DNA of 64,000 nt, taken from assembly GCA_963705305.1 (NCBI GenBank), contig OY970067.1, forward strand, positions 2,912,001-2,976,000. The letters are read 5' to 3'. Position numbers and translations under genes: made by a program. How positions within the stretch are numbered: position 1 is the first letter of the stretch; each line of letters begins with the position of its first letter. The notes under the pieces were generated by a model. It was not told where the DNA came from. It saw only the letters and a program-made list of their open reading frames with translations, and made no database searches. Source of the DNA: an uncultured Methylomirabilota bacterium. Lineage in GTDB: Bacteria > Methylomirabilota > Methylomirabilia > Methylomirabilales > 2-02-FULL-66-22. Positions 12,531 through 55,065 of the stretch are shown here, piece after piece.

Positions 12531-12536
12531 AAAGTC

Positions 12537-13528: not shown

Positions 13529-13537
13529 GGAGACAGC

Positions 13538-13822: not shown

Positions 13823-13824
13823 TC

Positions 13825-15685: not shown

Positions 15686-15902
15686 CGTTTGTTCACGACT
15701 CGGTGAGTCTTGACTCGGATCGGGGATGCCCAGACCGAGAGGCGTTGCATCGACGCGAGCAAGGGGAAGCGGGCGGAGGATGGCCGCCCATCACCGCCCC
15801 CATCTACGCCGCAGGGAGCCGCTGGCGGGGGGCGGGTCCCCGGGACGGGGGCGGCAGGTGCACCGCATGGGATCCGGATGTCCGGCAGGGTCCGGGCGGG
15901 CG

Positions 15903-16715: not shown

Positions 16716-16865
16716 GGGTGCCCTTTCTTCCGAAGCCGGAGGGTAGAACGCCCGGCCGCAGCCGTGGGGGGAGAAAAGTCCGGCCGGGCGAGTTCTGGGC
16801 CGCGAAAGGTGGCGACTCCGAAGGCGCCGGCGACCCGACTCCGCACAAGACCGCACGTGCTGGGG

Positions 16866-16895
16866 AACCTAGCAACGCCGGCAGGCCGCTGTCAA
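16866..16895 (-). promoter_or_regulatory. Putative sigma70 promoter of the enoyl-CoA hydratase gene
   Basis: Minus strand TTGACA-N18-TAGGTT with TG just upstream of the -10. Confidence 0.45.
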
Positions 16896-17147
16896 GGGTG
16901 CTGTCGAGACATGCGGGGTCGCCAGGGCATCGCCCCGGCAGCGGACGCGATCAGCGGGGGAAGACGCCTATCGGCCCGGCCGACCGAACATGCGGGCAGG
17001 TTTGCCTTGACAGGGGGAATTTCTGTGGAGTAGTCATACGGAAGCCCGCGGCTTTACTACCTGCCCGTGAGGGACCAGCGCTGCTGGTCCGCATATCCAC
17101 GCGAGCAACAGTTCATGATGGGACACCGGGGTCGAACGGGGGCGCGG

Positions 17148-17330
17148 ATGCGCATCGAGCACTCCAAGCGCGTTGCCTGTGTGAACCGCGTGCCCGTCTG
17201 CCCCATGGGGCCAGCCACGTCGACCCGGGGATCCACCGGGCCGGGCTGGTCGAGGATGCCCGCGTGGAGTGCCGCCCCTGCTCCCGGAAGATGAGCGCGG
17301 AACGCCTGCGGCCGTCCCGGGCTGACGCCG
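17148..17330 (+). pseudogene. Decayed N-terminal fragment of a 2x[4Fe-4S] ferredoxin-domain protein
   Basis: MRIEHSK(R)VACVN(R)VPVCPMG / frameshift / ASHVDPGIHRAGLVEDA(R)VECRPC: CxxCxxCxxxCP spacing, with three Cys positions now CGC. Confidence 0.6.
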
Positions 17331-17460
17331 GGGCGCGCTGAGGGGCTCTTCTCCGGGCCGGGCCGCGTAAAGGCCGGCTCGCGGAGGGGAAAAGCCACCG
17401 CGCCGGGACGGAGTCCCGGCAGGCTCAACTCGTTGTGCCGAGCGCAGAAGGAGGGACGCT

Positions 17461-18465
17461 ATGCGCGCAGGAACGCAGTGGAGCAGGATCTGGCGAGTGG
17501 GGGCGGTCGCGGCCTTGGGACTGGCCTTGGTCGCGGGGTGGGCGCCGCCTGCCGGCGCCGCGACGGTCATCCGAATGGGCGACGTAGGGTACCCGGATTC
17601 GCTGCTCGCTCTCCAAACCGATGAGTTCGCGAAGCGAGTGAACGAGGCTCTCAAGGGCCGGGTCGAGGTCAAGGTCTTCCACGCCAGCCAGCTCGGCTCC
17701 GACGAGGAGATGCTCAAGGGAATCAAGGTCGGGGTCCTGGAAATGTTCCAGCCGTCCACGGTCATGAGCACCGTGGATCCGGGGTTCGGCGTATTCGAGA
17801 TGCCGTACCTCTTCAAGGATCGCGCCCAGGTGAAGCGGGTGGCCGAGGATCCGCAGATTCAGAAACTGCTGTTCGGGTCGCTCCCCGAAAAGGGGCTCCG
17901 GATCCTGGGGATGTGGGAGAACGGCTACCGGGTCATCACCAACAATGTGCGTCCCATCGTCAAACCTGAGGATCTGAAGGGGATCAAGCTGCGCGTCCCC
18001 GGAGGCGTCTGGCGCGTCAAGATGTTCAAAGCCTACGGGGCCAACCCGACGCCCATGGCCTATTCGGACGTCTTCGCCGCCTTGCAGGCTGGGGTCATGG
18101 ACGGCCAGGAGAACCCCTTCGCCCAGATCTACGGTGGGAAGTTCTACGAGGTGCAGAAGTACCTGTCCCTGACGGACCACGTCTACACGCCGTCCTATGC
18201 CGTAATCTCCGAGCGGTTCTGGAAGACGCTGCCCCCCGACGTACAACAGGTTCTGGCCAAGATCGCGGTGGAGGTGGGGGATTACGGCCGCAAGGAAGGG
18301 GCCCGGATGGACACGGACCTCGAAGGGAAGATGCAGAAGTACCTCAAGGTCAACGAGGTGGACAAGGAGGCCTTCGTCGAGGCGTCCAAGCCCATCTACG
18401 AGGAGTTCACGAAAGAGGTCAAGGGAGGCAAGGAGCTGGTGGACCGGATCATGGCCTTGCGGTAG
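17461..18465 (+). CDS. dctP: TRAP transporter substrate-binding protein
   Basis: Signal peptide; SQLGSD, ENGYR, DLKGIKLRVP, GANPTPM, DGQENP. Confidence 0.95.
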   Translation: MRAGTQWSRIWRVGAVAALGLALVAGWAPPAGAATVIRMGDVGYPDSLLALQTDEFAKRVNEALKGRVEVKVFHASQLGSDEEMLKGIKVGVLEMFQPSTVMSTVDPGFGVFEMPYLFKDRAQVKRVAEDPQIQKLLFGSLPEKGLRILGMWENGYRVITNNVRPIVKPEDLKGIKLRVPGGVWRVKMFKAYGANPTPMAYSDVFAALQAGVMDGQENPFAQIYGGKFYEVQKYLSLTDHVYTPSYAVISERFWKTLPPDVQQVLAKIAVEVGDYGRKEGARMDTDLEGKMQKYLKVNEVDKEAFVEASKPIYEEFTKEVKGGKELVDRIMALR

Positions 18466-18510
18466 AACGGCACAGCCGCCAAAGATGCCGGTGGGGAAGG
18501 AGGGAGGTCC

Positions 18511-19023
18511 ATGCGCAAGCTCTACACCAACCTGATCGCTTTTCTCCTGGGCGTTTCGGGGGTCCTGATGCTGGCCATGCTGGGGGTCGTCCTGCTGGGC
18601 GTGATCTTCCGCTACGCTCTCAATGCGGCCCTGTCCTGGTATGACGAGTTCGCCGGGTACGTCCTGGTCTGGCTGACGATGTTCGGGACGGTGGTGGCGC
18701 TGGCCAAAGGGAAGCACATCAGCTTCGAGACCCTGGCGGAGAAACTCCCGACTCGCTGGCAGCGGGCGGTGGAGATCTTCGGCAGCGTGTGTGTCCTGAG
18801 CTTTTCCCTCGTCATGCTGGTATCGGGGTGGGTGCTGGTGCGCTCCATGTGGGGGGAGACGTCGGTCTCGGTCCCCACGGTGGAGATGTCCTGGGTGTAC
18901 AGCGTGCTACCCATCTCCGGAGTGCTCCTGGTCCTGGTCGGCATCGTCCAGCTCACGATGCTGGTGACCGGGCAGGAGGTGCCGGAGGCCCCGAAGCGCA
19001 AAGCCATGGAGGAGGGACAGTAA
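18511..19023 (+). CDS. dctQ: TRAP transporter small permease
   Basis: 4 TM segments; FRY, SWYDEFA, HISF; position between dctP and dctM. Confidence 0.92.
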   Translation: MRKLYTNLIAFLLGVSGVLMLAMLGVVLLGVIFRYALNAALSWYDEFAGYVLVWLTMFGTVVALAKGKHISFETLAEKLPTRWQRAVEIFGSVCVLSFSLVMLVSGWVLVRSMWGETSVSVPTVEMSWVYSVLPISGVLLVLVGIVQLTMLVTGQEVPEAPKRKAMEEGQ

Positions 19024-20304
19024 ATGGGTTGGGTCGTCCTGAGCCTCGTGCTGTTCCTGTCCGCTCTCAACGTCCCCATCGGGTTCGTGCTGGCCATCGC
19101 CACCATCCTGGCCGTCCTGATCCAGGGGACGGCTCCCCTGGAGGCTATCCCGCTGATGATCTTCGGCGGCGCCTCCAAGTTCCCCTTGCTGGCCATCCCC
19201 CTGTTCATCCTGGCGGGGGGGCTGATGACGACCACCGGGATCTCCACGCGCCTCATCAACCTCGCCAGCGCCCTGGTGGGGTTCATCCGGGGGGGCCTGG
19301 CCATGGTGACGATCGTGGCCTCCATGTTTTTCGGAGAAATCTCCGGATCGGCGGTGGCGGGAGCCGCCGCCATCGGTCAAGTGGTCATCCCGGCCATGGA
19401 GAAGAAGGGCTATCCTAAATCCTTCAGCGCCGGGGTGGTGTCCAACGCCGCCACCCTGGCCATCATCATCCCGCCCAGCATCCCCATGATCATTTACGCG
19501 GCCATGGCGGACACCTCGGTGGTGAAGCTGTTCATCTCAGGGGTTATCCCGGGCATCATCGGTGGGGGCTTGATGATGCTGCTCTCCTATTATTTCGCGC
19601 GGACCCGCGGCTACCCGGCTGAGGCGGCGTTCTCGCTGCGGGGGGTGGGGCGAGCGCTAAAGGACGGCTTCTGGGCCCTGATGATCCCGGTGGTGATTTG
19701 GGGGGGGATTTTCGGCGGGATTGCCACGGCCACCGAAGTCGGGGGGCTGGCGGCACTGGCGGCCATCCTGATCGGGATTTTCATCTACCGGGAGCTGAAC
19801 TGGCGAGACTTCTGGAAGACGGTCGTGGACTCCGCCATGCAGACGGCAGTCATCATGCTGATCGTGGCGACCTCGGCCGTCCTGAGTTGGTATCTCACCA
19901 ACGAGGGGCTCCCCCAGCAGTTGACCCAGGCCATGCTGACCCTGACGCAGAACAAGTACCTCATCCTGTTCCTGCTCAACATCGCATTTTTCGTCGCCGG
20001 CTGCTTCTTGCACAGCGCCGCGGCGATCATCCTGATCGTGCCCATCGTGCTGCCCCTGATCAAGCACCTCGGCATCGATCCAATCCACTTCGGGCTCATG
20101 GTCACGATCAACCTGGGGGTCGGCCAGCAAACCCCACCCGTGGCCACGGTGCTGATGACGACCTGCGCCATCGCCGACCTGTCCATGTGGGAGGTGTTCA
20201 GGACCGGCTTCTGGTACATGATGGTCCTGGTGCTGCTGACCCTTCTGGTGACCTACCTACCGGATACTGGTCTCTGGCTGGTGAGACTGGTGTATCGCAT
20301 GTAA
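19024..20304 (+). CDS. dctM: TRAP transporter large permease
   Basis: LLAIPLFILAG, ISGSAVA, IIPPSI, ATATE, GQQTPPV. Confidence 0.95.
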   Translation: MGWVVLSLVLFLSALNVPIGFVLAIATILAVLIQGTAPLEAIPLMIFGGASKFPLLAIPLFILAGGLMTTTGISTRLINLASALVGFIRGGLAMVTIVASMFFGEISGSAVAGAAAIGQVVIPAMEKKGYPKSFSAGVVSNAATLAIIIPPSIPMIIYAAMADTSVVKLFISGVIPGIIGGGLMMLLSYYFARTRGYPAEAAFSLRGVGRALKDGFWALMIPVVIWGGIFGGIATATEVGGLAALAAILIGIFIYRELNWRDFWKTVVDSAMQTAVIMLIVATSAVLSWYLTNEGLPQQLTQAMLTLTQNKYLILFLLNIAFFVAGCFLHSAAAIILIVPIVLPLIKHLGIDPIHFGLMVTINLGVGQQTPPVATVLMTTCAIADLSMWEVFRTGFWYMMVLVLLTLLVTYLPDTGLWLVRLVYRM

Positions 20305-35846: not shown

Positions 35847-36122
35847 TCAGCCGCCCATCAGGATGGGGTGCAGCTCGACGACGTGGCCGTCCTTGGGCCT
35901 GAAGGTGAGGTACTCTCGCTCGCCGTTCACCGCAGCAAGGCCGAACTCGACCTCCGGCAGGCCGGCCAGGCGGATGAGATCGCGAACGGTCGCCTCCTGG
36001 GGCCCCCGGACTTCGATCAGATGCGAGGGAAGATTGTAGTAGCGCAGGAAGCTCCGGGGGATCTCCAGGAGCACAGTTTTCCCGGCGCGCTCATGCCCGT
36101 TGCCGTTTCCGCTCCCCTTCAC
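35847..36122 (-). CDS. MoaD/ThiS-like sulfur carrier
   Basis: AVNGE...ELHPILMGG C-terminus; GTGA overlap with AOR stop. Confidence 0.8.
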   Translation of the reverse strand: MKGSGNGNGHERAGKTVLLEIPRSFLRYYNLPSHLIEVRGPQEATVRDLIRLAGLPEVEFGLAAVNGEREYLTFRPKDGHVVELHPILMGG

Positions 36123-37993
36123 GTGAACACGACTTCCTTCTCGTCGGTCAGCTCCAAGGTGTGGAGCGTCTCCGGCGTCGGCAGTCCGTCGGGCGACCAG
36201 CCCCGGACCTCATAGTATTCGTCCAGCATCTTCTCGAACGCTTCGGGCGGGATGTTGGGCAGGTCCTCGCCCCGCTTCTGGAGGGTGAGGATGCGGTGAG
36301 GAAGCTGGTCGTCCTCGCGCGTCACGCCCAGCCGTGCATTGTAGAGCCGCTTCAGGGTGAAGATGCGGTCTCCCGCCTCCATCAGGTCTTCCCAGGTCCA
36401 CTTCCATCCCGTGATGAGGTTCAGGGCCTCGGTGACAGGCGTCGGACTCATGGCCCGCGCGTAGAATTTGCAGAGGCCGACCCCGTTGTAGACCGCCATC
36501 AGGCTGTGCATGCGGGCGGCCAGCAGGGCCTTCCCGTCGGTGACGCGGGGGCTCAGCTTGGCGTTGTAGCCGAACTCCGGCATGGGGACCCCGGTCTCCA
36601 CGATGAAGGGGAGCCCCTCCAGGTGGCAGGCGCCCCGCGCCCCGGTGGCGTAGTTCAACCCCATGGACCAGAAGGCCCGGGGATCGTGCATGGGAAACTC
36701 CAGGCCCTTCACCGTGACCGTAAGCTTCTCGGCCCCGCCCCCGATTTTTTTGGCCGCAGCCAGCGAACCGTCGGCCAACAGGTCCCCCAGGCCCTGGCGG
36801 TGCGCGATCTGCTCTACCAAGGTCAGGATGGCCTTGGCATCCCCCCAGGCGAGCTTCATCCCGCCGGTGTCCCGCTCACCGATGAGGCCCTGCTCGAAGG
36901 CCTCGATGGCGAAGGCGATGCTGTTCCCCGTGGAGATGGTATCGAGGCCGTAGCGGTTGCACAGCTCGTTGGCCCGGATGACGGAAGGCAGATCGTCGTT
37001 CAGCGACATGGCGCCGAACGCCCCCAGCGTCTCGTACTCGGGGTTGTGGCCGACGTTCATCCGGACCCCGTCGGGACCCTCCATCGTGACGTGTTGCCAG
37101 CAGTGGATGGGGCAGCCGGAGCAGGAGCTGGACTTGACCTCGTACTTCTGATGAATGGTCTTGCCGCTGATCTTGGCCGCGCCCTCCGGCCAGTGTCCTC
37201 CCCGGAAGTTCTGGATGGGGAGGCCGCCGCGCTCTTCGTGAACCTCGATGCCGCCGGAGGTGCCGTAGGTCGTAAAGAGGCCGAACTTGGGGGGCATCTC
37301 GACGGTCTTCTTGAAGGCCCAGCCCATGAGCCCACCCGGGTTGGCGACCGGCACGCCTCGGGTGCCGCGGACCACGACGGCCTTCAGGTTCTTGGCCCCC
37401 ATGACGGCGCCCAGGCCGGTGCGTCCGGCGGCACGGGCATGTTGGCCCTCCACCATGATGGAGGCGATCCGCACCAGGTTCTCGCCGGCCAGCCCGATGG
37501 CGGCCACCTTGGCCTTGGGATCCGTCTCTGCCAGCAAGAGATCGTTGGCGTCGTACGTGTCTTTTCCCCAGAGGTGCTCGGCGGGTCGGAGCTTGACGTG
37601 GTCGTCGCTGATCCAGAGATAGACCGGGCGCTTCGCCGCGCCCAGGATCACCAGGCCGTCGTAGCCGGTGAATCGGAACTCGGCGCCCCAGGTCCCGCCG
37701 ACGGTGGCCTCGCCCCAGATATTGGTGAGGGGAGAGCGGGAGATCACGGAGGTGCGTGTCCCCCCGGGGATGGTCGTCCCCGTGAACATCCCGGGCATGA
37801 AGATCAGCGGATTGCGGGGATGAAATGGGTCCAGCGGCGGGTTGCCCAGGTCCATGAGCAGCCGCGCTCCCAGGCCGCTTCCCATGAGGTACTTCTTGTA
37901 CAGGGCGTCCGGGAGCGTCCGTTTTTCTACCGTCCCGGAGGTGAGATCAACCAGGAGGATCTTGCCAGAATATCCCTTGCCTCGCATTGCCAT
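36119..37993 (-). CDS. Aldehyde:ferredoxin oxidoreductase (tungsten AOR family), second copy
   Basis: RSPLT, AAGRTGLGAVMGAKNLKA, CSGCPIHC, PEYET, GLDTIS, KGLEFPMHDPR, RGACH, YYEVRGW. Confidence 0.94.
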   Translation of the reverse strand: MAMRGKGYSGKILLVDLTSGTVEKRTLPDALYKKYLMGSGLGARLLMDLGNPPLDPFHPRNPLIFMPGMFTGTTIPGGTRTSVISRSPLTNIWGEATVGGTWGAEFRFTGYDGLVILGAAKRPVYLWISDDHVKLRPAEHLWGKDTYDANDLLLAETDPKAKVAAIGLAGENLVRIASIMVEGQHARAAGRTGLGAVMGAKNLKAVVVRGTRGVPVANPGGLMGWAFKKTVEMPPKFGLFTTYGTSGGIEVHEERGGLPIQNFRGGHWPEGAAKISGKTIHQKYEVKSSSCSGCPIHCWQHVTMEGPDGVRMNVGHNPEYETLGAFGAMSLNDDLPSVIRANELCNRYGLDTISTGNSIAFAIEAFEQGLIGERDTGGMKLAWGDAKAILTLVEQIAHRQGLGDLLADGSLAAAKKIGGGAEKLTVTVKGLEFPMHDPRAFWSMGLNYATGARGACHLEGLPFIVETGVPMPEFGYNAKLSPRVTDGKALLAARMHSLMAVYNGVGLCKFYARAMSPTPVTEALNLITGWKWTWEDLMEAGDRIFTLKRLYNARLGVTREDDQLPHRILTLQKRGEDLPNIPPEAFEKMLDEYYEVRGWSPDGLPTPETLHTLELTDEKEVVFT

Positions 37994-38335
37994 CCTCGAA
38001 CATCCGCGGCCGATTCGTTGAGTCAGAATACGCCATAAGGCACCGTTATCATCCTGTATCAAGCCGGATGGTTCAAGAGAAAATTCAAAGGCCAGATTAT
38101 GCTTGTAAATATTTGTATTTTCACAGCTAGGTCGAATGGAGATACCAGATTGAAGCCACCAAATATGCTGGCATATTGGTGAGATTTCGCAGACGCAAGG
38201 CTGCGGCATGAGTGTCAAGATTCCTCTGCCGCCATTGGAGGTTGACGAGGCGGGGGTGAAAGAGTAAAAAGCCAACAATTCCAAAAGAAGCAATGCGCGC
38301 CGGCTGCCATCCTCGGCCGGGCGGCGGGATCGCAC

Positions 38336-39151
38336 ATGTCTGGGAAATACGTGCACGGTTATTCGCCGACGGAGGGCGGACGCCTCATGGATCAGGCGTC
38401 CACCCTGGCGGAGCTCTTGCACTCGGACACCGCCTACCCGGCGGGAAGCCTGGTGCTGGAGGCGGGCTGTGGCGTCGGCGCCCAGACCGTCACGCTGGCC
38501 GCTTCCAGCCCGCATGCTGCCTTCGTCTCCGTGGACATTTCGGCGGACTCGCTGGCGCAGGCAGAATCCCGGCTGCGACAGGCGGGGCTGGACAACGTCA
38601 CCTTCCGGCAGGCCGACATCTTTGCCCTGCCCTTCGATGCTGCCCACTTCGATCACGTCTTCATCTGCTTTGTCCTGGAGCACCTGGCAAGCTCCAAGCG
38701 CGCGCTGGCGGAGATGATCCGGGTCCTGAAGCCCGGCGGAACGCTGACCGTGATCGAGGGGGACCACGGCTCGGCCTACTTCCATCCCCAGAGCGACTTC
38801 GCCCGGAAAGCCATCCAGTGCCTGGTGGATCTCCAGCGCGACGCGGGCGGTGATGCGCTCATAGGGCGCCGGCTGTATCCGCTGCTGGTCCAGGCCGGGT
38901 TCCGTGAGGTTCGCGTGTCGCCGCGAATGGTCTACGCCGACGCCAGCCGGCCGGCGATGGTGGATGGCTTCATTCGCAAGACCTTCGCGGCCATGGTGGA
39001 GGGAGTGGGGCAGCAGGCTATCCGCCAGGGGTTGATGGACGCGGCCTCTTGGGCACGGGGGATTCAGGACCTGTACCGGACGGCGGAGAACGACGGGACC
39101 TTCTGCTATACGTTCTTCAAAGCTATTGCACGGCGTCCGGAGGGTGCGTGA
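38336..39151 (+). CDS. Class I SAM-dependent methyltransferase
   Basis: VLEAGCGVG, SVDIS, FDHVFICFVLEHL, LKPGG. Confidence 0.92.
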   Translation: MSGKYVHGYSPTEGGRLMDQASTLAELLHSDTAYPAGSLVLEAGCGVGAQTVTLAASSPHAAFVSVDISADSLAQAESRLRQAGLDNVTFRQADIFALPFDAAHFDHVFICFVLEHLASSKRALAEMIRVLKPGGTLTVIEGDHGSAYFHPQSDFARKAIQCLVDLQRDAGGDALIGRRLYPLLVQAGFREVRVSPRMVYADASRPAMVDGFIRKTFAAMVEGVGQQAIRQGLMDAASWARGIQDLYRTAENDGTFCYTFFKAIARRPEGA

Positions 39152-43418: not shown

Positions 43419-44108
43419 ATGCTCATGAAACCTGACGACAAGCTTCGCGATTTGTCGATGCGCACGGGGAAGGCGGTCGCCCACTCTTGGAAGACTCGGA
43501 CAGGACAGCAAGATAGGCAGCGGAAGACCGGGAAGGCCGACCAGGGACTGCGCAGCGCCGTCACCGGCGGCGCGCAGATGGACGGATTCATCGACCTCTT
43601 CACGGAGTTGATAACGGCAGCCGGGATTTTTCCGTCCCCCAAAGAGTGGGACCTGCTCGTGGTGCGCGAGAAGACGCTCCTTGCCGCGATCGAGGCCAAG
43701 TCCCAGGTGGGTCCATCCTTTGGCAACAACTTCAACAACCGAACTGAGGAGGCGATCGGAAGCGCCCTTGACCTCTGGACCGCATACCGCGAACATGCCT
43801 ACCTGAGCAGCCCCCAGCCTTTCCTTGGCTATTTCTTCATGCTGGAAGACTGTGTCGCCTCCAATCGCCCGGTCAAGGTGCAGGAGCCGCATTTCAAAGT
43901 GTTTCCCGAATTCGTCGACGCCTCGTACATGCGCCGCTATGAAGTCTTCTGCCGCAAGCTCGTGCTGGAGCGGCATTACACGGCAGCGGCGTTCATCTCG
44001 TCCACGGCGTACGACGGGATTGGGGGACGCTTCTCGACGCCGGCGGACGACCTGTCCGTCGAGCGTTTCGCGAAGACACTCGCGGCCCACTTGGCCGCCT
44101 TTGCGTGA
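43419..44108 (+). CDS. XhoI/PaeR7I family type II restriction endonuclease (possibly internally deleted)
   Basis: RSAVTGGAQMDGF, WDLLV, AIEAKSQVGPSFGNNFNNRTEEAIG, CRKLVLERHY. Confidence 0.85.
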   Translation: MLMKPDDKLRDLSMRTGKAVAHSWKTRTGQQDRQRKTGKADQGLRSAVTGGAQMDGFIDLFTELITAAGIFPSPKEWDLLVVREKTLLAAIEAKSQVGPSFGNNFNNRTEEAIGSALDLWTAYREHAYLSSPQPFLGYFFMLEDCVASNRPVKVQEPHFKVFPEFVDASYMRRYEVFCRKLVLERHYTAAAFISSTAYDGIGGRFSTPADDLSVERFAKTLAAHLAAFA

Positions 44109-44112
44109 ACCC

Positions 44113-45020
44113 ATGGTCACTACGATTCACAGGCTGATCAACGGCGACGCGAGGGAGCTCGCGTACCTGGATGATGCTTCGGTTCATCTTGTCGTCACGT
44201 CTCCCCCGTATTGGAATCTGAAGCGCTACAACGAGAACCCGGACCAGCTCGCCATATTCAGGACTACGAGGCGTTCCTGTTCGAGCTGGAAAAGGTCTGG
44301 CGGCATGTCTACAGGATCCTCGTGCCGGGTGGGCGACTCGTGTGTGTGGTGGGAGACGTCTGCGTCGCGCGCCGCGACTTCGGACGCCACCTCGTCTTTC
44401 CCCTCCACGCCGACATCTGTGTCATGTGTCGACGGATCGGATTCGACAACCTGAACCCCATCATCTGGCACAAGATCGCCAACGCCTCCTACGAAGTGGA
44501 AAACGGCTCCAAGTTTCTCGGAAAGCCCTACGAGCCGAATGCCATCGTGAAGAACGATATGGAGTTTATCCTGATGCAGCGAAAGCCCGGGGGCTACAGG
44601 AAACCAACGAACGCGCAACGAGAGGCAAGCAAGATTGCCAAAGACGACTTTGACCGGTGGTTTCAACAGATCTGGACCATCACCGGAGCCTCAACCAAAG
44701 ACTACCCAGCCCCCTTCCCGCTGGAACTTGCCACACGCCTGGTCCGCATGTTCTCCTTCACCGAGGACACGGTCCTGGACCCGTTCAGCGGGTCAGGCAC
44801 GACGATGGTCGCCGCCCTGCGCCACGGACGAAACAGCATTGGTGTTGAGATCGATCCGGAATACTGCCGCATGACCGCCCGGTATCTGAAAGCCGAGACG
44901 GCCGACCTCTTCACGAAAGCGGAACTTCGCTTTGAGAAAGCACCTACAGAAACCACCGCGTTCGTGAGAGAAGAGCGCGCCCTGTACGAGGTCCGGCCGG
45001 CCAGAAAGAAGCTTGAATAG
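44113..45020 (+). pseudogene. N4-C/N6-A DNA methyltransferase (beta class), one base missing near 44250
   Basis: VVTSPPYW in the first frame; IIWHK, PAPFP, VLDPFSGSGTT, GVEID in the second; span is 3n+2. Confidence 0.85.
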
Positions 45021-46382: not shown

Positions 46383-46766
46383 ATGTGGAAGTACGCGCTC
46401 GCCTGGGTGCCGATGGTCCTCATCGCCATCCTAAACGGGGCCGTGCGGGAGGTGTGGTACGGGAAGTCCCTCGGTGAATTGCGCGCCCACCAGCTCTCCA
46501 CGCTGATCGGCGCGGTGCTTCTTGGGCTTTACATCTGGGGGATCTCCCGGCTCTGGCCGCTGGCATCGGGGCACCAGGCCCTGGCCGTGGGTGTACTCTG
46601 GCTGGTTCTGACCGTGGGCTTCGAGTTCCTGTTCGGGCACTACGTCGTCGGACACCCCTGGACCCGACTGTTCCACGACTACGACCTCCTGGCCGGGCGC
46701 GTCTGGAGCCTGCTCCTCCTCTGGGTGACGGTTGCGCCCTATCTCTTCTACCGCCTGGGCCGCTAG
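46383..46766 (+). CDS. Hypothetical membrane protein (4 TM)
   Basis: Hydrophobic ORF with NGAVRE, AHQLST, LTVGFEFLFGHY; plausible codon usage. Confidence 0.75.
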   Translation: MWKYALAWVPMVLIAILNGAVREVWYGKSLGELRAHQLSTLIGAVLLGLYIWGISRLWPLASGHQALAVGVLWLVLTVGFEFLFGHYVVGHPWTRLFHDYDLLAGRVWSLLLLWVTVAPYLFYRLGR

Positions 46767-47936
46767 TCTAGTGTGTCATAAATACGGTGACTTATAGTAC
46801 GTACTCTGGTATGCTCCTCGGTGAGGAGGAGCAAGCCATGCGTGTGGCGGTGCCGATTGTGCTGAGCCCGCAGGAACGCACCATCTTGGAACGCTGGGCA
46901 CGGGGGCGGCGCACCCCCGCGCGCCTCGTGCGCCGGGCGCAGATCGTCCTGCGCGCGGCGGCGGGGCAGCGGAACGACGAGGTCGCCCGGGCCCTGGACA
47001 CGGATCGCGAGTGTGTGGGTCGGTGGCGGACTCGCTTCGCCCAGCAGCGGCTGGCCGGGATCGAGCGGGATGCCCCGCGCCCCGGCCGGACGCCCGCCAT
47101 CGCCCCGGCGGTCCTGCAGCGCATCGTCACCCTGACGACAACCAGCGCGCCGCCCGCCGCCACCCACTGGAGCACGCGGACCCTGGCGGCCGCGGTCGGC
47201 GTGAGCCCGAAGACCGTGCACCGGGTCTGGCAGGCCCACGGCCTGAAGCCGCATCGGGTCCGCCCGTTCAAGGTGAGCCGCGACCGGCGGTTCCTCGAGA
47301 AGCTGACCGATGTGGTGGGGCTGTACCTGAATCCCCCTGAGCACGCGTTGGTGCTGTGCGCCGACGAGAAGAGCCAGATCCAAGCGCTCGACCGCACCCA
47401 ACCCGGCCTCCCGCTGAAGAAGGGCCGGTGCGGCACCCTGACCCACGACTACAAGCGGAACGGCACGACCACGCTCTTCGCCGCCCTGGGGCTCGTGACG
47501 GGCCAGCTCATCGGCACGTGCCTGCCCAAGCATCGGCACCAGGAGTGGCTCCGGTTCCTCCGGCTGATCGACGCGCAGACCCCGCCCGACCTGGACCTCC
47601 ACCTGATCGTGGACAACTACGCCACCCATAAACACCCTGCGGTCCAGCGCTGGCTCGCCCGCCACCCACGCTTCCACATGCACTTCATTCCGACCAGCAG
47701 CTCGTGGTTGAATCTCATCGAGCGGTGGTTCCGGGAGCTCACGACCAAGCGGCTCCGCCGGGGCGTCTTCAAGAGCGTCGCCGACCTCATCGCCGCCATT
47801 GAGGCCTTCATCGCACACCACAACCGCCACCCCCGGTCGTTCACCTGGACGGCCAAGGTGGAGGACATCCTGGCGAAAGTCGAGCGGGCTCGAGCAGTGC
47901 TGCATAAGATGGCATCTGTGTGACACGGTAGACTAG
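46763..47936 (+). mobile_element. IS630 family insertion sequence
   Basis: Ends CTAGTCTAGTGTGTCA / TGACACGGTAGACTAG (14/16 inverted match), CTAG at both ends, transposase inside. Confidence 0.92.
46838..47923 (+). CDS. IS630 family transposase
   Basis: HTH region, [41 protein letters not shown] (DDE). Confidence 0.96.
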
Positions 47937-48091
47937 CAGGCTGCTGAAAAGCGCCCATATGCGGCGTTGCCCCGCTCCCGCGGCGCTGCGGCGTACGGGC
48001 TAAGTACGCCTCGCGCCTCGGATCGCGTGCGCCTTGCATCTGGGCGTTTTGAGCAGCCTCAGCGAAATCGAGCTCTTCAGCATCCCGCTAA
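47933..48091. mobile_element. MITE-like element, copy 2
   Basis: CTAGCAGGCTGCTGAAAA...TTCAGCATCCCGCTAA; colinear with 27775-27935 (shared GCGGCGTTGC, GCTGCGGCGTACGGGC, AAGTACGCCTCGCGCC, GCCTTGCATCTGGGC). Confidence 0.8.
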
Positions 48092-48400: not shown

Positions 48401-50815
48401 ATGGCGATGACCAGCTGCCAGGGGATCCGGGAACAAGGTACCTTCCAGGGCGCGAGTCGGGCCACTCCCCGCATCCGGCGCCTGCGGGAGCGGATGCTGG
48501 CGGCCGTTCCGGAGATCACCGTTGAGCGGGCCGTCGTGATCACCGAGTCCTACCGGGAGACGGAGGCAGAGCCGATCGAGATCCGCCGCGCGCTGGCGCT
48601 GGACAGGATCCTCCGGCGCATGACGATCTTCATCCTGGAGGACGAGCTGATCGTCGGCCACCTGTGCGACAAGTATCGCTGCTCGCCGGTCCACCCCGAG
48701 GTGAACGTCCAGTGGATTCTGGACGACGAAGAGCTGGAGTCCATCCAGACGCGGCGCCAGAACCGGCTTCTGGTCTCCGACGAGACGAAGGCCGCGCTGC
48801 GCGAGGTGGCCCGCTACTGGCAGGGCAAGACCCTCTTCGACAGGTCGTGGGCCGCCCTCCCGGAGTCGGTGCGACGCATGCGGCGGACGGGGGGCATGAC
48901 CCTGGCCCACGAGAAGAACATGCTGGGCCACTGCATCCCCGACTGGAATCATCTGCTCCAGCAGGGCTTCGGCGGCCTGCGGGAAGAGGTGGAGGCCAGG
49001 CTGGGCCGGCTCAACCTGGCCGACCCCGACGACCTCGCCAAGTGGAACTTCCTGCGATCCCTGGTCATCGTCATCGACGCCTGCTCGGCCTTTATCCGGC
49101 GCTACGCCGCTCTGGCGGCGCAGATGGCGGACGCCGCCCCCGAGGGGGAGCGCCGGGCGGAGCTCCAGCGGATCGCCGCAGTGTGCGAGGCCATAGCGGT
49201 GGGTCCGCCGCGGGGCTTCCAGGAGGCGCTGCAGCTCCTCTGGTTCGGCCACCTGGTCACGGTCATCGAGGGGGACGCGCGCTCCACCTCGTACGGCCGG
49301 CTGGATCAGTACATGCTCCCGTTCTACCGGCGGGACATCGAGGCGGGCACTCTCACGCCGGAGCGGGCGCAGGAGCTGCTGGAGTGCTTCTGGATCAAGC
49401 CCAACGAGATGATCCTGCTGGACGACCGCGAGCACGCCACGTACCGGGGCGGGTATCCGAACGGGTGGAACCTGGTGGTGGGCGGGATGACCAGGGAGGG
49501 GCTCGACGCCGCCAACGAGCTGTCCTACATGTGCCTGCAGGCCTTCGAGGACGTGCGGCTGTTCCAGCCCAACTTCGGGGTGCGCATCTTCCGCGGCTCC
49601 CCCGAGCCGTTCCTGCGCCGCACCTACGAGGTCATCGGCCTGGGGACGGGGATTCCCCAGGTCTTCAACGACGAGGTCGTCGTGCAGGCGTTGGCGCGCT
49701 CGGGCCTCCCCATCGAGGAGGCTCGCGATTATACGGCCACCGGCTGTGTGGAGCACGCGACGCCGGCGGTGTGGATTCGCGGGAACGGCGGCTGGATCAA
49801 TCTGGCCAAGGCCGTCGAGTTCGCTCTGAACGACGGCCGCTGCGCCCTGACCGGGCAGCAGGTGGGCCTCCGGACGGGAGACGCCGCATCGTTCCAGACG
49901 TACGAGGAGTTCGAGGCGGCCGTGAAAAGACAGCTCGCCTACGAGATCGAGCAGATGGTGATCGAGAACAACATCATCGATGGGATTCATGCCGGGCTGG
50001 TCCCGGAGCTGCTCGTCTCGCTGCTCATCCGCGACTGCGTGGCGAAAGGAAGGTCGGCAGCCGCGGGGGGAGCGCGATACAACTACACCAGTCCCATGTC
50101 CATCGGCGTGGCGACGTTGGCCGACTCCCTGGCCGCCGTGAAGAAACTGGTCTTCGAAGAGCGGCGGATCGAGATAGACACGCTGCGCGCCGCCCTGGCC
50201 GCCGATTTTGTGGGGGTTGAGACGCTCCGGCAGATGCTGTGCAATCGCGCGCCGAAGTACGGGAACGACGACGATTACGTGGATCGCATCGCGATCGAGA
50301 TGCAGCGCTTCTTCGCTGAGGAGCTCCGGGAATACCGGTCGCCCCGGGGCGGGACCTTCCGGCCGGGCTTCTGGACGGTCCTGGCCAACATGGGCCTGGG
50401 GCGGCTGACGGGGGCCACCCCCGACGGGCGAAAGGCGGGGGAGCCGCTATCGGATTCCATCGGCCCCTCCAACGGCTGCGACCGGCAGGACACCACGGCG
50501 GTGCTCTGCTCCGCCGGGAAGATCGACCAGACGCTGGCGGCGAACGGGACGGTCCTGAACCTGCGGTTGTCTCCGGCCCTGGTCGCGGGCCAGGGGGGTG
50601 TGTCCCGCATCGGTCATCTCATCAAGTCGTATTTCGACATGGGGGGCGGCCAGCTGGCCATCACGGTGGTATCCACGGACACCCTGCGCGAGGCCCAGCG
50701 GCACCCCGATCGCTACCGGGATCTCTTGGTGAAAGTGGCCGGGTACGCCGCCTTCTTCGTGGAACTGGGCGAGCAGGCGCAGAACGAGATCATCCTCAGA
50801 AGCGAGCACAGCTGA
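48401..50815 (+). CDS. Glycyl radical enzyme (PFL2/dehydratase-like, class unassigned)
   Basis: GRLDQY, QPNF, Cys loop ATGCVEH, APKYGND, GATPDGR, Gly loop LLVKVAGY; cognate activase downstream. Confidence 0.93.
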   Translation: MAMTSCQGIREQGTFQGASRATPRIRRLRERMLAAVPEITVERAVVITESYRETEAEPIEIRRALALDRILRRMTIFILEDELIVGHLCDKYRCSPVHPEVNVQWILDDEELESIQTRRQNRLLVSDETKAALREVARYWQGKTLFDRSWAALPESVRRMRRTGGMTLAHEKNMLGHCIPDWNHLLQQGFGGLREEVEARLGRLNLADPDDLAKWNFLRSLVIVIDACSAFIRRYAALAAQMADAAPEGERRAELQRIAAVCEAIAVGPPRGFQEALQLLWFGHLVTVIEGDARSTSYGRLDQYMLPFYRRDIEAGTLTPERAQELLECFWIKPNEMILLDDREHATYRGGYPNGWNLVVGGMTREGLDAANELSYMCLQAFEDVRLFQPNFGVRIFRGSPEPFLRRTYEVIGLGTGIPQVFNDEVVVQALARSGLPIEEARDYTATGCVEHATPAVWIRGNGGWINLAKAVEFALNDGRCALTGQQVGLRTGDAASFQTYEEFEAAVKRQLAYEIEQMVIENNIIDGIHAGLVPELLVSLLIRDCVAKGRSAAAGGARYNYTSPMSIGVATLADSLAAVKKLVFEERRIEIDTLRAALAADFVGVETLRQMLCNRAPKYGNDDDYVDRIAIEMQRFFAEELREYRSPRGGTFRPGFWTVLANMGLGRLTGATPDGRKAGEPLSDSIGPSNGCDRQDTTAVLCSAGKIDQTLAANGTVLNLRLSPALVAGQGGVSRIGHLIKSYFDMGGGQLAITVVSTDTLREAQRHPDRYRDLLVKVAGYAAFFVELGEQAQNEIILRSEHS

Positions 50816-51780
50816 TGGGGCCGACGGAGGGACAGGCCCGCGCCGCCGGCCCGCTGGCGGAGGCGACGGGTGACACGGCGCGCGGGCTCGTGGCCAGCAT
50901 ACGCCGCTTGGCCGTCCACGACGGCCCCGGCATCCGGACGATCGTCTTCATGAAGGGATGCCCCCTGCGGTGCGTCTGGTGCGCCGCCCCCGAGACCCAG
51001 TTGCCGGGTCGGGAGATCCTCCACTATCCCGAGCGCTGTCTCGGCTGCGAACTGTGCCGCCAGGCCTGCCCCGAGGGGGCCATCGCGGTCGCTTCGGACG
51101 CGGACCGCCGCATCGACCGGTCTCGCTGCACCCTATGCGGCCGCTGCGTCGAGGCATGCGCGGCCGAGGCGTTGCAGATGCCGGCCCGCGAGATGAGCGC
51201 GGCCGAGGTGCTGGCCGAGGTGGAGCGGGACCGGATGTTCTACCGGCACTCCGGCGGGGGGGTGACCATCTCCGGGGGGGAGCCCTTGATGCAGCCGGCC
51301 TTCACGTCGGCCCTTCTCCGCTCCTGCCGGCAGGCCGGCCTCCACACGGCGATGGAGACCTCTGGGCTCCAGTCCTGGGAGGTCTTCGCCGCCACGCTGG
51401 TCGACCTGGACCTTCTGCTGTACGATCTGAAGCTCATGGACCCCGAGGCGCACCGTCAATATACCGGCGCCTCCAACGAGCGGATCCTCGAAAATTTGGA
51501 GCGGGCCGTGGCCCGCGGAATTCCGACCGTCGTGCGCATCCCCGTGATCCCCGGATTCACCGACCAGGATTCCAACATCCTCGCCATGCGCCAGCTCCTC
51601 CGGGGCATCGGGCCGATCCGGCGCATCGATCTCTTGCCGTACCACCGGCTGGGGGAGGCGATGTACGCACGGCTGGGGCGGGAGTATGCCCTGAGCCTCC
51701 CGTTGGTGACCGACGAGCGGCTGGAGCACGTGGCCGGGCTGCTGCAGGCGGCAGGCTTTGTGGTCCAGGTCGGCGGGTGA
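50815..51780 (+). CDS. Glycyl-radical enzyme activase (radical SAM with ferredoxin insert)
   Basis: HDGPGIRT, KGCPLRCVWC, two CxxCxxCxxxC motifs, GGVTISGGEP, LLPYH. Confidence 0.95.
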   Translation: MGPTEGQARAAGPLAEATGDTARGLVASIRRLAVHDGPGIRTIVFMKGCPLRCVWCAAPETQLPGREILHYPERCLGCELCRQACPEGAIAVASDADRRIDRSRCTLCGRCVEACAAEALQMPAREMSAAEVLAEVERDRMFYRHSGGGVTISGGEPLMQPAFTSALLRSCRQAGLHTAMETSGLQSWEVFAATLVDLDLLLYDLKLMDPEAHRQYTGASNERILENLERAVARGIPTVVRIPVIPGFTDQDSNILAMRQLLRGIGPIRRIDLLPYHRLGEAMYARLGREYALSLPLVTDERLEHVAGLLQAAGFVVQVGG

Positions 51781-52006
51781 GCCGGTTTTCGAATCCTTCG
51801 GCATTCATCCCGCGCGCGCCGCCGCCGGTCGGCAAGGCTTGCCCTTGTGTCATCTCCACAGCTGCGGTACTCTTCCTTCCGGCTTGGCCCGCGTCCGGCG
51901 GGACCTGATCGAGTGTGAATTCGTCCTGGCGGTTCCGTCCAACGAGACAGGCGGAACTACGCGTCCGCCGTGGAGACCCTCCATCCCATGAAAGGAGCCC
52001 TCGCCC

Positions 52007-53050
52007 ATGCCGACACTTCGCTGCGAACCGCTGGAGCAGCTGGCGGTGAGCATCTTCCAGGCCATCGGCGTCCCCCCGGCCGGGGCGACCTGGATGGGCC
52101 AGCTCTTGGTCCGCGCCAATCTGCGCGGCCATGACTCCCACGGGGTCATCCGCATCCCTCAGTACGTGACCTCCTGGAAGAAGGGGGAGGCCGATCCGGC
52201 GGCCGACCCGCAAATTGTGCAGGAGGGACCCGCCACGGCCCTGGTGGATGGCAAGCGAGGATTCGGACAGATCGTGGCCCGCCGCGGGATGGAGATGGCC
52301 CTGGAGAAGGCCGCGGCCGTCGGGGTGGCGGCCGTGGGGGTGCACAACAGCAACCACATCGGCCGCCTGGCGGACTACACCGAGATGGCCGCCGAGCGGA
52401 ACATGCTGGCGTTCCTGGCGGTAAACGCCGCCGGCGCCGGCCTGCGGATGGCCCCCTGGGGCGGGCGCGCCGCCCGGCTGAGCACCAATCCGTTCGCTTT
52501 TGCCTGCCCGACCGGACGGGGCGTCCCCATCAGCTTCGACGTTGCCACCACCGTGGTGGCCGAAGGAAAGGTGCGCGTCAAGCGGAACCGCAAGGAGCCG
52601 CTGCCCCTCGGCTGGGTCCTCGACGCGCAAGGGAACCCCACCACGGATCCCAACGCCCTCTACGGCGATCCCCCAGGAACCATCCTGCCGGCGGGCGGCC
52701 ACAAGGGATACGCGCTGGCGCTGATGATCGAGGTGCTGGCGGGAGTCCTGGCGCGGGCGGGATACTCGCGGGAGAAGCCCGGACCGATCCTGAACGGCCT
52801 GCTCATGGTGGTGGTGGACATCGCCCGCTTCGTGTCAGCCGACACGTTCCGCGCCGAGGTGGACGACCTCACTCGCTACCTGAAGACGTCTCCCACGGTT
52901 CCCGGCGTCAAGGAGATCCTGACGCCGGGCGAACCAGAGGCCATGTGCGAGGCGGAGCGACGCCGGACGGGGATCTTCGTCGAGGAGCAGACTTGGGGCC
53001 AGATCGTGCAGGCGGCGGAGGGGTTGCGGGTGCCGGTGCCGTCCGTCTGA
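52007..53050 (+). CDS. Ldh_2 family oxidoreductase (malate/L-sulfolactate/ureidoglycolate dehydrogenase-like)
   Basis: GHDSHG, NHIGRL, STNP, DVATT, GGHKGYAL, PGEPE. Confidence 0.92.
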   Translation: MPTLRCEPLEQLAVSIFQAIGVPPAGATWMGQLLVRANLRGHDSHGVIRIPQYVTSWKKGEADPAADPQIVQEGPATALVDGKRGFGQIVARRGMEMALEKAAAVGVAAVGVHNSNHIGRLADYTEMAAERNMLAFLAVNAAGAGLRMAPWGGRAARLSTNPFAFACPTGRGVPISFDVATTVVAEGKVRVKRNRKEPLPLGWVLDAQGNPTTDPNALYGDPPGTILPAGGHKGYALALMIEVLAGVLARAGYSREKPGPILNGLLMVVVDIARFVSADTFRAEVDDLTRYLKTSPTVPGVKEILTPGEPEAMCEAERRRTGIFVEEQTWGQIVQAAEGLRVPVPSV

Positions 53051-53136: not shown

Positions 53137-53643
53137 ATGAAAAGACATGCGATCCGACGCGGTGGAATCGGGACGGGCCTGTTGGCGGCGGCCCTGGTGC
53201 TGGCAGCCGGGTGCCAGTATGCGCCGCCCCCGCTGCCCCGGCTGCCCATCCAGGTGGAGGTGGAGAACTCGGGCCCCCTGCGCGTGGCGGTCGTGGACAC
53301 GGTCAAGCGCCCGGTGCCGGCGGTGGAGCTGTCGGGGTTCCTCAAGGCGGGGGTCCGCTGGACCTACACGGTCCAGTTCGCCAACACCGGCTCGGTCGGC
53401 ATCCGGCTGCTGGAAGTGGAGGCCACCGTCGAAAGCTTGAGCGGGGTGACCAGCACCCGGACGATTCCGCTGCCCAGCCGGGTAGAGCCCGGAGGCACCA
53501 CCCCGGTCGCCATCGAGGCGGTCCTCACCACCTCCAATCCCGCGGAGCCGCAGAATCTGACCGGGGTGCAACGGCTGGTGTTCCTGGGGCGGGACGATCG
53601 GGGGAATCCCCTCCGCGTGACCGTGCGCGTCCCGCTGGTGTGA
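53137..53643 (+). CDS. Hypothetical lipoprotein
   Basis: Lipobox LAAGC; beta-rich mature region. Confidence 0.6.
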   Translation: MKRHAIRRGGIGTGLLAAALVLAAGCQYAPPPLPRLPIQVEVENSGPLRVAVVDTVKRPVPAVELSGFLKAGVRWTYTVQFANTGSVGIRLLEVEATVESLSGVTSTRTIPLPSRVEPGGTTPVAIEAVLTTSNPAEPQNLTGVQRLVFLGRDDRGNPLRVTVRVPLV

Positions 53644-53670: not shown

Positions 53671-55065
53671 TCAAGCCGACAGGAGCCCGGGCATCTCTTT
53701 CGACGGGGTGCCGGACGCCGAGGCATACAGCCGGAGCTTGCGGTACAGGGTCCGCTCCGAGAGGCCCAGCATCTTGGCCGCCGCGGCGCGGTTTCCCCGG
53801 CAGTGAACGAGGGTGCGCAGGATGGCTTCCCGCTCCAGGTCGGTGATGGTCATTCCCAGCGGGAGGCGCAATCCCTCCTTGGGGCCCATGGCGCGGACGG
53901 AGGGGGGAAGCTCGTTGGCGGTGATGGCGGGCCCCTTGGCCAGCACTACGGCCCGCTCGATGCAGTTTTCCAGCTCGCGCACGTTCCCCGGCCAGGCGTA
54001 GTCCAGGAGGAGGCCCATGGCCTCCTCCCCGATCCGCTCGACAGGTTTCCCCATCTTCTTGGCAAACCGCTCCAGGAAGTGGTTGGCGAGGAGGGGGAGA
54101 TCCTCGGTCCGCTCCGCCAAGTCGGGGAGGGCGATCGTGATGACGTTCAGCCGGTAGTACAGATCCTCCCGGAACGTGCCGTCGGCGACCGCCTGTATCA
54201 GATCCCGGTTGGTGGCCGCGATGAACCGGACATTGACCTTGATGGTCTGATTGGAGCCGACCGGCTTGATTTCTCCCTCTTGGATGGTTCGCAGCAGCTT
54301 TACCTGCATCGCCGGCGGCATGTTTCCGATTTCGTCCAGGAAAATGGTCCCGCCGTCCGCCTCCTGAAAGACCCCGTGCTTGTTGCCGATGGCGCCGGTG
54401 AAGGACCCCTTGACATGGCCGAACAGCTCGCTCTCCAGCAAGGTCTCCGTCAAGCCGCCACAGTTCAGGGCCATGAAGCGCCGATCCCGTCGCGGGCTCT
54501 GGGAGTGGATGGCGCGCGCCACCAGCTCCTTCCCGGTGCCGCTCTTCCCCTGGATCAGGACGTTGCTCTCGGTCCCCGCCAGGTTTTCCAAGAGCTGGAA
54601 AACCTCCTGCATGCGCGGGCTCTTGCCGATGAGGTCCTGATAGGTGTACCGGCGGTCCAGCTCCCGGCGCAGGGCCTCGTTCTCCTGGCGGAGGCGGATC
54701 TCTTCGATGGCCTTCTTGGTCAGATGCAGCAGCCGGTCGCGCGTGATGGGCTTGGTGATGTAGCAGAGAGCCCCTTGCTTGATAGCCTTGACGGCCGTGT
54801 CGATGGTCTCGTAGGCGGTGACGAAGATGACTCCCGGTGTGGCGGCCAACTCGCGCAGGGCCTCCAGGAGGCCCAGGCCGCTCATCTCCGGCAGGCGCTC
54901 GTCGGTGAAGACCAGCTCCGCGGGCTCCCGGCGCAGCGCGGCGAGCGCCCCGGACGCGGTCTCGACACCCCGCACGTGAAAGCCGTCCGACTCCAGCGTG
55001 GCCTGGATGAGACCACGCAGATCGTTGTCGCTGCTGACGACGAGAACGCGCGCGTGTTTGGCCAT
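53671..55065 (-). CDS. Sigma54-dependent response regulator (NtrC/AtoC type)
   Basis: Receiver domain; GKSGTGKE, ESELFGHVKGSFTGA, FLDEIG, REDLYYRL, WPGNVREL; C-terminal HTH. Confidence 0.95.
   Translation of the reverse strand: MAKHARVLVVSSDNDLRGLIQATLESDGFHVRGVETASGALAALRREPAELVFTDERLPEMSGLGLLEALRELAATPGVIFVTAYETIDTAVKAIKQGALCYITKPITRDRLLHLTKKAIEEIRLRQENEALRRELDRRYTYQDLIGKSPRMQEVFQLLENLAGTESNVLIQGKSGTGKELVARAIHSQSPRRDRRFMALNCGGLTETLLESELFGHVKGSFTGAIGNKHGVFQEADGGTIFLDEIGNMPPAMQVKLLRTIQEGEIKPVGSNQTIKVNVRFIAATNRDLIQAVADGTFREDLYYRLNVITIALPDLAERTEDLPLLANHFLERFAKKMGKPVERIGEEAMGLLLDYAWPGNVRELENCIERAVVLAKGPAITANELPPSVRAMGPKEGLRLPLGMTITDLEREAILRTLVHCRGNRAAAAKMLGLSERTLYRKLRLYASASGTPSKEMPGLLSA

Follow-up and report, generated by a model that had tools for sequence, protein, structure and literature searches.

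Glycyl radical enzymes (GREs) include eliminases and isomerases. According to a 2026 review (PMC13450708), the characterised eliminases are glycerol dehydratase (GD), 1,2-propanediol dehydratase (PD), HpfG, HypD, HpyG, HpzG, CutC, IslA, IseG and HpsG, and the isomerases are HplG, YbiW and PflD. The review defines both groups of enzymes by a Cys-x-Glu motif, assigns to Glu435 of GD the deprotonation of the C1 hydroxyl and to His164 the protonation of the leaving C2 hydroxyl, has the known C-S lyases hold their sulfonate by two arginines, and describes whole GRE clades as still without experimental validation (PMC13450708). Here we analysed a GRE gene and its activase in a 64,000-nucleotide stretch of contig OY970067.1 (assembly GCA_963705305.1, positions 2,912,001 to 2,976,000) from an uncultured Methylomirabilota bacterium; this whole stretch is called the window, and positions are counted from its first base (Table 1). 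Both genes are real and intact. By sequence comparison, the GRE fits no characterised class and belongs to a small uncharacterised clade. We favour, with moderate confidence, the explanation that GRE and activase are the surviving core of an accessory island, that the GRE would be a radical eliminase acting on an anionic hydroxy compound, and that the Ldh_2-family oxidoreductase gene next to them stands outside the module.

The open reading frame (ORF) of the GRE is uninterrupted and encodes 804 amino acids, with the motifs TGCVEH (Cys449-Val450-Glu451), KVAGY (Gly781), EGDARSTS (Arg294) and YRGGYPNGWNL (Arg349) in its translation; His177 and Ser295 complete the set of key residues. A barrel like that of pyruvate formate-lyase (PFL; PF02901, residues 22-667, 699.3 bits), a C-terminal glycyl radical domain (Gly_radical, PF01228, residues 684-787, 87.8 bits) and the adjacent cognate radical SAM activase place the protein in the GRE superfamily. 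An earlier reading of the window from the sequence alone (the sequence-only reading) had reported an 804-aa GRE, an activase and an Ldh_2 gene, and all three were recovered by translation and Pfam, as was each motif that it quoted. Its description of a single-cysteine loop of the eliminase rather than the PFL Cys-Cys type also held, since the 1,2-eliminase/isomerase motif is present as Cys449-Val450-Glu451. KVAGY corresponds to the RVxG[YF] glycine loop, with G, V, A and Y invariant in the GRE alignment, and was rightly called unusual: K occupies the first position in only 14/258 aligned sequences (the 11 members of the clade described below and three others), and R in the other 244. A Shine-Dalgarno-like AAGGAG lies 7 nt 5' of the GRE start. 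The activase, described beforehand as coupled and as carrying a ferredoxin insert, does overlap the GRE stop codon, by a single base (50815). In addition to a CxxxCxxC motif it has two cysteine motifs of the ferredoxin type (Fer4 matches, residues 69-125); it scores 334.7 bits with TIGR02494 (cut-off 174) and is 62% identical to the activase on L091, a metagenome contig that holds a related locus.

Within NCBIfam, the GRE passed only the broad subfamily model TIGR01774 and reached no equivalog cut-off. This included the models for HpfG (NF048009, 610.8 bits, cut-off 1000), HypD (NF043068, 601.8 bits, cut-off 1100), CutC (TIGR04394, 570 bits, cut-off 1050) and HpsG (NF048011, 567.5 bits, cut-off 1000). 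Identity as a PFL was rejected, as TIGR01255 gave 136.6 bits (cut-off 994) and the protein has a single cysteine with no adjacent Cys-Cys pair. In a sequence search of all solved structures the best match was 1r8w, a glycerol dehydratase (626 bits); PD and CutC came next, and IslA, IseG and HplG were among the most distant eliminase-type matches. The AlphaFold2 (AF2) model of the GRE (mean pLDDT 92) also matched 1r8w best in Foldseek (TM 0.94-0.97, 39% identity), and no solved GRE was more than 39% identical to the window GRE. All of the eliminases and isomerases listed in the review, HpfG excepted, have structures among these matches, and all are distant.

A protein search with the GRE returned 11 clusters at 75-79% identity, two at ~66% and one full-length sequence at 48%, followed by a continuum at or below 45%. 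In the 258-sequence alignment the active-site signature is the same in all 11 close sequences, and these form one branch with a support of 100 in a FastTree phylogeny of 93 GREs, which were drawn from the same 258 sequences with HypD-like sequences thinned to 8 and PflD-like sequences to 6. This branch is sister to P0014/P0015, then to P0017, within a superclade of 34 rows (support 99). No labelled reference falls inside that superclade, which is separate from GD/PD-like, PflD-like and true HypD sequences, the last scoring 1303-1454 bits with NF043068. The class left unassigned by the sequence-only reading stayed unassigned, and the tree, with HypD, GD/PD-like and PflD-like sequences for comparison, showed no clustering with a characterised GRE. 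GRE relatives in the contigs of the species genomes did not exceed 44% identity, a search of all 251 genomes of the phylum found no orthologue besides that of the genus member G009, and the metagenome contigs contributed one close locus, that on L091. A literature search for GREs tied to sulfolactate, TRAP transporters or carboxylates, with subscription papers mostly outside its reach, found no such enzyme.

The loci of two relatives reveal the island in a more complete form. On L091, whose GRE is 79% identical to that of the window, the order is DnaE, AccA, a GntR/FCD regulator, DctP, a DctQ-sized gap, DctM, GRE, activase, DUF3303, Ldh_2 and two small ORFs. On L084, a 3.2-kb contig of G009, the C-terminus of DctM is followed by the GRE (76% identical) and the activase. 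A tripartite ATP-independent periplasmic (TRAP) transporter therefore stands directly 5' of the orthologous GRE in both relatives, and an FCD-GntR regulator too in one of them. The island in relatives comprises the FCD-GntR regulator, a DctP-Q-M TRAP transporter, the GRE and the activase, and the transporter is specific to the island. No orthologue of the island DctP was found in 40 related genomes or in the window genome (best 43% identity); orthologues of DctM with at least 79% identity form ~14 clusters, a number similar to the 11 of the GRE clade. Three of the DctM clusters share their source and contig size (23104, 10291 and 3756 bp) with clusters of the GRE clade, an indirect sign of co-location. 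TRAP systems are a transporter type for organic anions.

Alignment to 1r8w, the GD of Clostridium butyricum, places Cys433, Glu435, His164 and Ser282 of GD at Cys449, Glu451, His177 and Ser295, and conservation of this core fits a direct elimination of the dehydratase type. The surrounding pocket is another matter. GD residues His281, Phe333, Tyr339, Asp447 and Tyr640, some of which presumably touch glycerol, read Arg294, Arg349, Gly355, Asn462 and Trp658, and the GD motifs ESNGHSIS, GGYPMYQNL, WHD and PGLY are not kept. The sequence-only reading had set two of these segments against glycerol/propanediol dehydratase motifs, and the motifs it gave were essentially right (IESNGHSIS and FGGYPMYQNL in 1r8w, IESSGHSIS in 5i2a). 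Arg294, Arg349, His452 and Trp356 are invariant in 11/11 members of the clade and occur in 0/247 other GREs, and the sister clade (66% identity) carries Tyr and His at the two arginine positions. Residues of HypD were mapped onto the GRE through a true HypD sequence in the alignment, with their roles taken from PMC7077986. Trp277, a substrate contact, falls on Arg294, and Ser334, which is essential and binds the substrate carboxylate, falls on Arg349; Tyr450 and Thr645, both near the carboxylate, fall on Trp465 and Val660, and the essential His160 falls on His177. The two 'added arginines' from which an anionic substrate had been proposed are thus real and clade-specific and, by the HypD alignment, sit at substrate-contact positions; their conservation and the TRAP transporter 5' of the GRE in two relatives, joined by an FCD-GntR regulator in one, support that proposal well.

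These data bear directly on whether the GRE could simply be a GD or PD of the usual kind, with a neutral diol as its substrate. GD and PD (5i2a, 9rco) are its best matches in sequence and structure (626 and 592 bits, 36-39% identity), and it shares with them the CXE cysteine loop, the Cys/Glu/His/Ser core and an activase with a ferredoxin insert. Nevertheless, we regard this identity as very improbable, given the replacement of all five pocket residues, the K in place of R in the glycine loop, the separate branch taken by GD/PD-like sequences in the tree and a genomic context of TRAP and GntR genes, hence of an organic-anion importer, rather than of diol-associated, aldehyde-processing or microcompartment genes. 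The sequence-only reading had remarked on the lack of microcompartment, cut, proC and AdhE neighbours, and this was confirmed: a search of the whole genome for bacterial microcompartment shell genes (PF00936) came back empty, and no cut, pyrroline-5-carboxylate reductase or AdhE family member turned up among the window ORFs scanned, which were a selection from 39.9 to 61.4 kb and, in the rest of the window, all 69 that reach 200 aa.

HypD (6vxc), HpyG and HpzG (8id1, 8iof) share the fold and the histidine of strand β1 (HypD His160, His177 here) and are GRE dehydratases of carboxylate-bearing substrates, as proposed for the window GRE. The resemblance to HypD goes little further. Identity is 34-36%, the score with the HypD model is well below its cut-off, there is no pyrroline-5-carboxylate reductase gene nearby, and Trp277, Asp278, Ser334, Asp339, Phe340, Tyr450 and Thr645 are not kept; the residues that bind hydroxyproline in HypD, Asp278, Ser334, Phe340, Tyr450 and Thr645, read gap/Ser, Arg, Gly, Trp and Val.

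Arginines holding an anion are likewise a feature of the C-S lyases IslA, IseG and HpsG and of HpfG, which dehydrates 2,3-dihydroxypropane-1-sulfonate (DHPS), all GRE eliminases of anionic substrates, and the window GRE might be such a lyase, releasing sulfite from isethionate, DHPS or sulfolactate. The indications of an anionic substrate and the TRAP transporter would suit this reading, and TRAP import of isethionate has reportedly been described for a sulfate reducer in one open paper; the second-best NCBIfam match of the neighbouring Ldh_2 protein is, moreover, a sulfolactate dehydrogenase (NF040650). The active site speaks otherwise. The sulfonate triad of Arg (β1), Gln (β1) and Arg (β8) reads Asn173, His177 and probably Gly656, the third equivalence being inferred from HypD Thr645 = IslA Phe682, and the arginines of the window GRE stand at other positions. 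His177, the equivalent of the proposed acid for the leaving hydroxyl in GD, is kept. Among solved GREs, IslA, IseG and HpsG rank with the more distant ones (31-34% identity, 415-486 bits), and the models for HpsG and for HpfG, the latter compared by profile score alone, fell far short of their cut-offs. A C-S lyase therefore appears improbable to us.

The GRE probably catalyses the loss of water or of some other group from a hydroxy compound that bears a negative charge. The activase would place the radical on Gly781, and Cys449 would relay it to the substrate, where the thiyl radical would abstract hydrogen from the hydroxyl-bearing carbon. Glu451 would deprotonate the hydroxyl on the radical carbon and His177 and Ser295 would assist the departure of the neighbouring hydroxyl or other leaving group, a direct 1,2-elimination as proposed for the B12-independent glycerol dehydratase. 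As substrate we propose a small hydroxy compound of anionic character; the likeliest kind is a hydroxy-carboxylic or sugar acid that carries a vicinal diol. The clade-specific Arg294 and Arg349 would hold its one or more acid groups, and in the relatives the dedicated TRAP system would import it.

In the window genome, the island is truncated: its regulator and transporter have been lost, an IS630-family element lies upstream and a probable remnant of DUF3303 lies downstream. A tblastn search of the whole genome found no orthologue of the island regulator or of its TRAP genes (best 37-44% identity). The IS630 element occurs in nine genome copies that are 100% identical over 1174-1176 bp, and the ~150-bp repeat beside it has eight further copies at 85-91% identity (blastn). 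The DUF3303 remnant is 55-66% identical over 82-85 columns to the 3' ends of DUF3303 in six relatives, compared with 37.5% for a DUF3303-less control. DnaE-AccA is found 2.1 Mb away from the GRE locus and is followed by unrelated genes, such that the genus-wide synteny is broken at the IS630/repeat site. This arrangement is consistent with an island that would have inserted between AccA and DUF3303, just 5' of Ldh_2; a rearrangement at the IS630 site would have removed the regulator and transporter and split the locus from DnaE-AccA, and a deletion would have truncated DUF3303. On L091 itself, DUF3303 (11510-12065) appears interrupted: ~200 nt of additional sequence separate its N-terminal part from the conserved C-terminal stretch.

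Such a history raises the question of whether the module in this genome is a decaying leftover, with a GRE no longer used once its transporter and regulator were gone. The loss of both from the whole genome, the IS630 copy and repeat upstream, the truncated DUF3303 and the broken DnaE-AccA synteny would all be expected of decay. On the other side, both ORFs are intact with all catalytic and clade-specific residues kept, the Shine-Dalgarno-like sequence is retained, and any of ~30 other DctP paralogues in the genome could import the substrate. We consider decay improbable. Scans of the region for promoters, terminators and RNA folds gave nothing above chance.

The sequence-only reading had taken the Ldh_2 gene for a pathway partner of the GRE and the locus for its best candidate for a new pathway. 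In one version the GRE would form a 2-oxo acid for reduction by Ldh_2; in the other, Ldh_2 would provide the 2-hydroxy acid on which the GRE carries out its elimination. The family assignment itself is sound, as PF02615 covers the full length of the protein (residues 7-333, 380.6 bits), which is encoded 226 bp 3' of the activase gene. No equivalog was passed, the best models being YbiC-like PRK10098 (292.9 bits, cut-off 336), sulfolactate dehydrogenase NF040650 (242.7, cut-off 500) and AllD (186.3, cut-off 496). The best solved match was 2g8y, deposited as 'Malate/L-lactate dehydrogenases', and close homologues are named 'hydroxycarboxylate dehydrogenase B' by JGI. The protein thus resembles the YbiC/HcxB hydroxycarboxylate dehydrogenases in domain, structure match and best model but differs from them in scoring below the equivalog cut-off and in being a genus-core gene independent of the GRE. 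Enzymes of this family interconvert 2-hydroxy and 2-oxo acids, which would suit either direction of the proposed pathway, and three further points favour a pairing and so weigh against our placing Ldh_2 outside the module: the gene lies on the same strand and directly 3' of the island in both loci whose downstream side is visible (window and L091); the island has no enzyme of its own to process the product; and recruitment of the resident Ldh_2 is possible.

Comparison across genomes, however, separates the two genes. An Ldh_2 orthologue is present in 17/20 genomes of the genus, whereas the GRE is present in 1/20, and a search with Ldh_2 returned more than 120 clusters at 76-80% identity, from sources that name candidate division NC10 and Methylomirabilis, versus 11 for the GRE clade. 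We surveyed 12 related loci with Ldh_2 and found it in the same backbone in all 12: DnaE, AccA, DUF3303 (7 of 12), Ldh_2, a small ORF (5), a sigma-54 regulator (8), PFK, GlpX and HisS, with AccA directly 5' of Ldh_2 in 11/12 and PFK 3' in 11/12. The GRE, its activase and the island TRAP genes occurred in 0/12. Where the island is present, DUF3303 (L091) or its remnant (window) stands between it and Ldh_2. Between L091 and G020, which has no GRE at this locus, Ldh_2 is 93% identical, versus 79% between L091 and the window, and the window Ldh_2 stands no nearer to that of L091 than to its orthologues in GRE-less genomes. Ldh_2 thus has no lineage tied to the GRE. The AccA/Ldh_2 junction of G009 is intact, with an 80-bp gap, and the GRE orthologue is found on the separate contig L084 behind DctM. 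GRE and Ldh_2 thus do not co-occur across genomes as a dedicated pair would; they are adjacent because the island inserted into a conserved backbone, and Ldh_2 is an ordinary core gene beside the insertion site, the second in the backbone on its right-hand side. As to conservation of the Ldh_2 neighbour, the gene does adjoin the island in both visible loci, and synteny accounts for that adjacency. We therefore judge a GRE-Ldh_2 pathway unlikely, if somewhat less so than a C-S lyase or a decaying module, and do not retain the partnership. A pairing of a 3-hydroxyproline dehydratase with an Ldh_2-type pyrroline-2-carboxylate reductase was also considered and rejected, its premise having been removed by the synteny result. 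Ldh_2 scores higher against YbiC and ComC (205.6 and 200.2 bits) than against the piperideine/pyrroline-2-carboxylate reductase 1wtj (133.7 bits), and a literature search for such a dehydratase-reductase pairing found nothing relevant.

Table 1. The GRE module of the window and the features that flank it.
Feature	Position in window	Strand	Basis
IS630-family element (DDE_3 transposase ORF 46787-47923), immediately to the left of the GRE module	46762..47937	+	Pfam DDE_3 and HTH; blast copies
Short dispersed repeat, ~150 bp, separating the IS from the GRE leader	47937..48090	.	blastn
GRE, 804 aa, eliminase type	48401..50815	+	ORF translation, Pfam, NCBIfam, alignment, AF2 model
GRE-activating radical SAM enzyme with two-cluster ferredoxin insert	50815..51780	+	TIGR02494, Pfam
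Probable remnant of the DUF3303 3' end, 5' part deleted	51893..51977	+	DNA alignment; translated stretch RRDLIECEFVLAVPSNET
Ldh_2-family oxidoreductase (YbiC/HcxB-like), genus-core backbone gene	52007..53050	+	PF02615, NCBIfam, synteny
Small ORF, 168 aa, backbone	53137..53643	+	63% identical to L091:13821-14348; in 5/12 GRE-less loci
Sigma-54-dependent response regulator, backbone	53671..55065	-	Pfam; orthologue in 8/12 related loci

The 168-aa backbone ORF had no Pfam or NCBIfam match; with the window ORF as query, its homologues on L091 and in 5/12 relatives were 59-63% identical. Genes for an XhoI-type restriction endonuclease and an N6/N4 DNA methylase lie side by side (43419-45020), 3 kb to the left of the insertion sequence (IS). 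Elsewhere in the window, organic-acid genes occupy 7357-20304 and 36119-38785. These include an IlvD/Edd-type dehydratase, PrpD/MmgE, an FCD-GntR regulator, a TRAP transporter (DctP 17461-18465, DctM 19024-20304) and two aldehyde:ferredoxin oxidoreductases (13819-15978 and 36119-38785); the substrate-binding protein (SBP) of this transporter is only 35% identical to the island SBP. The genome as a whole is rich in transporter and oxidoreductase paralogues, with ~30 DctP, ~30 DctM, 21 FCD-GntR and 10 Ldh_2 loci detected by tblastn with the L091 proteins as queries.

Further GREs were encountered alongside the clade. The window genome encodes a second one (G000:C1:2047966-2053662; L172/L001) that is 44% identical to the first, carries the GD-like motifs ESNGHSIS and GGYPLFQNL, has DctM and DctP 5' and its own activase 3', and passes no NCBIfam equivalog cut-off; its orthologues are found in three genomes of the genus (L087-L089). 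Another uncharacterised clade is represented by L085 (G019) and L086 (G007), whose GREs are 46-47% identical and have the cysteine loop GCDEI; the GRE gene on L085 adjoins a MaoC-like dehydratase gene.

Several points temper the preferred reading of the GRE and activase as the core of an island for an anionic hydroxy compound. The tree was built without references for CutC, IslA, HpsG, HpfG and HplG, whose distance was judged by profile, sequence and structure scores, and it is from alignment to HypD and GD that Arg294 and Arg349 are expected to face the pocket. The genomic context of the clade was seen for three members (window, L091 and L084), all of one genus, and L084, which comes from a metagenome-assembled genome, might represent the same AccA/Ldh_2 site in another strain, so a position of the GRE elsewhere in the G009 genome is uncertain. 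The island SBP carries little information on its ligand, as its best solved relatives, which we take to bind sugar acids, score only 160-177 bits. The best NCBIfam match of the regulator is a phosphonate-utilisation regulator (130.7 bits, cut-off 271.5), a weak lead that points away from a simple carboxylate. With these points in mind, we would tentatively rank a vicinal diol of the hydroxy-carboxylic or sugar acid type first, a sulfonate diol second and a phosphonate or amino acid last. It is possible, though we would not put it higher than that, that the clade represents the first GRE to dehydrate a hydroxy-carboxylic or sugar acid and so yield an oxo-acid. Erythronate/threonate, glycerate and tartrate are examples of such a substrate, whose acid groups Arg294 and Arg349 would clamp and which a dedicated TRAP system would import.

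The locus therefore holds an uncharacterised GRE clade that is worthwhile but ordinary, and no GRE-Ldh_2 pathway. The negative result for Ldh_2 illustrates how adjacency alone misled, and how comparing the distribution of the neighbour with that of the enzyme revealed backbone synteny. The clade itself offers a defined signature, consisting of two invariant arginines, a GD-type core and a dedicated TRAP transporter and regulator. Dehydration of hydroxy-carboxylic acids is at present served by enolase-superfamily and Fe-S dehydratases. If the proposed activity is true, it would add a new substrate class to the GRE eliminases, in large-genome relatives of Methylomirabilis (NC10 phylum), and, should the substrate be a hydroxy-carboxylic acid, it would indicate anaerobic use of organic acids in this NC10-related lineage.

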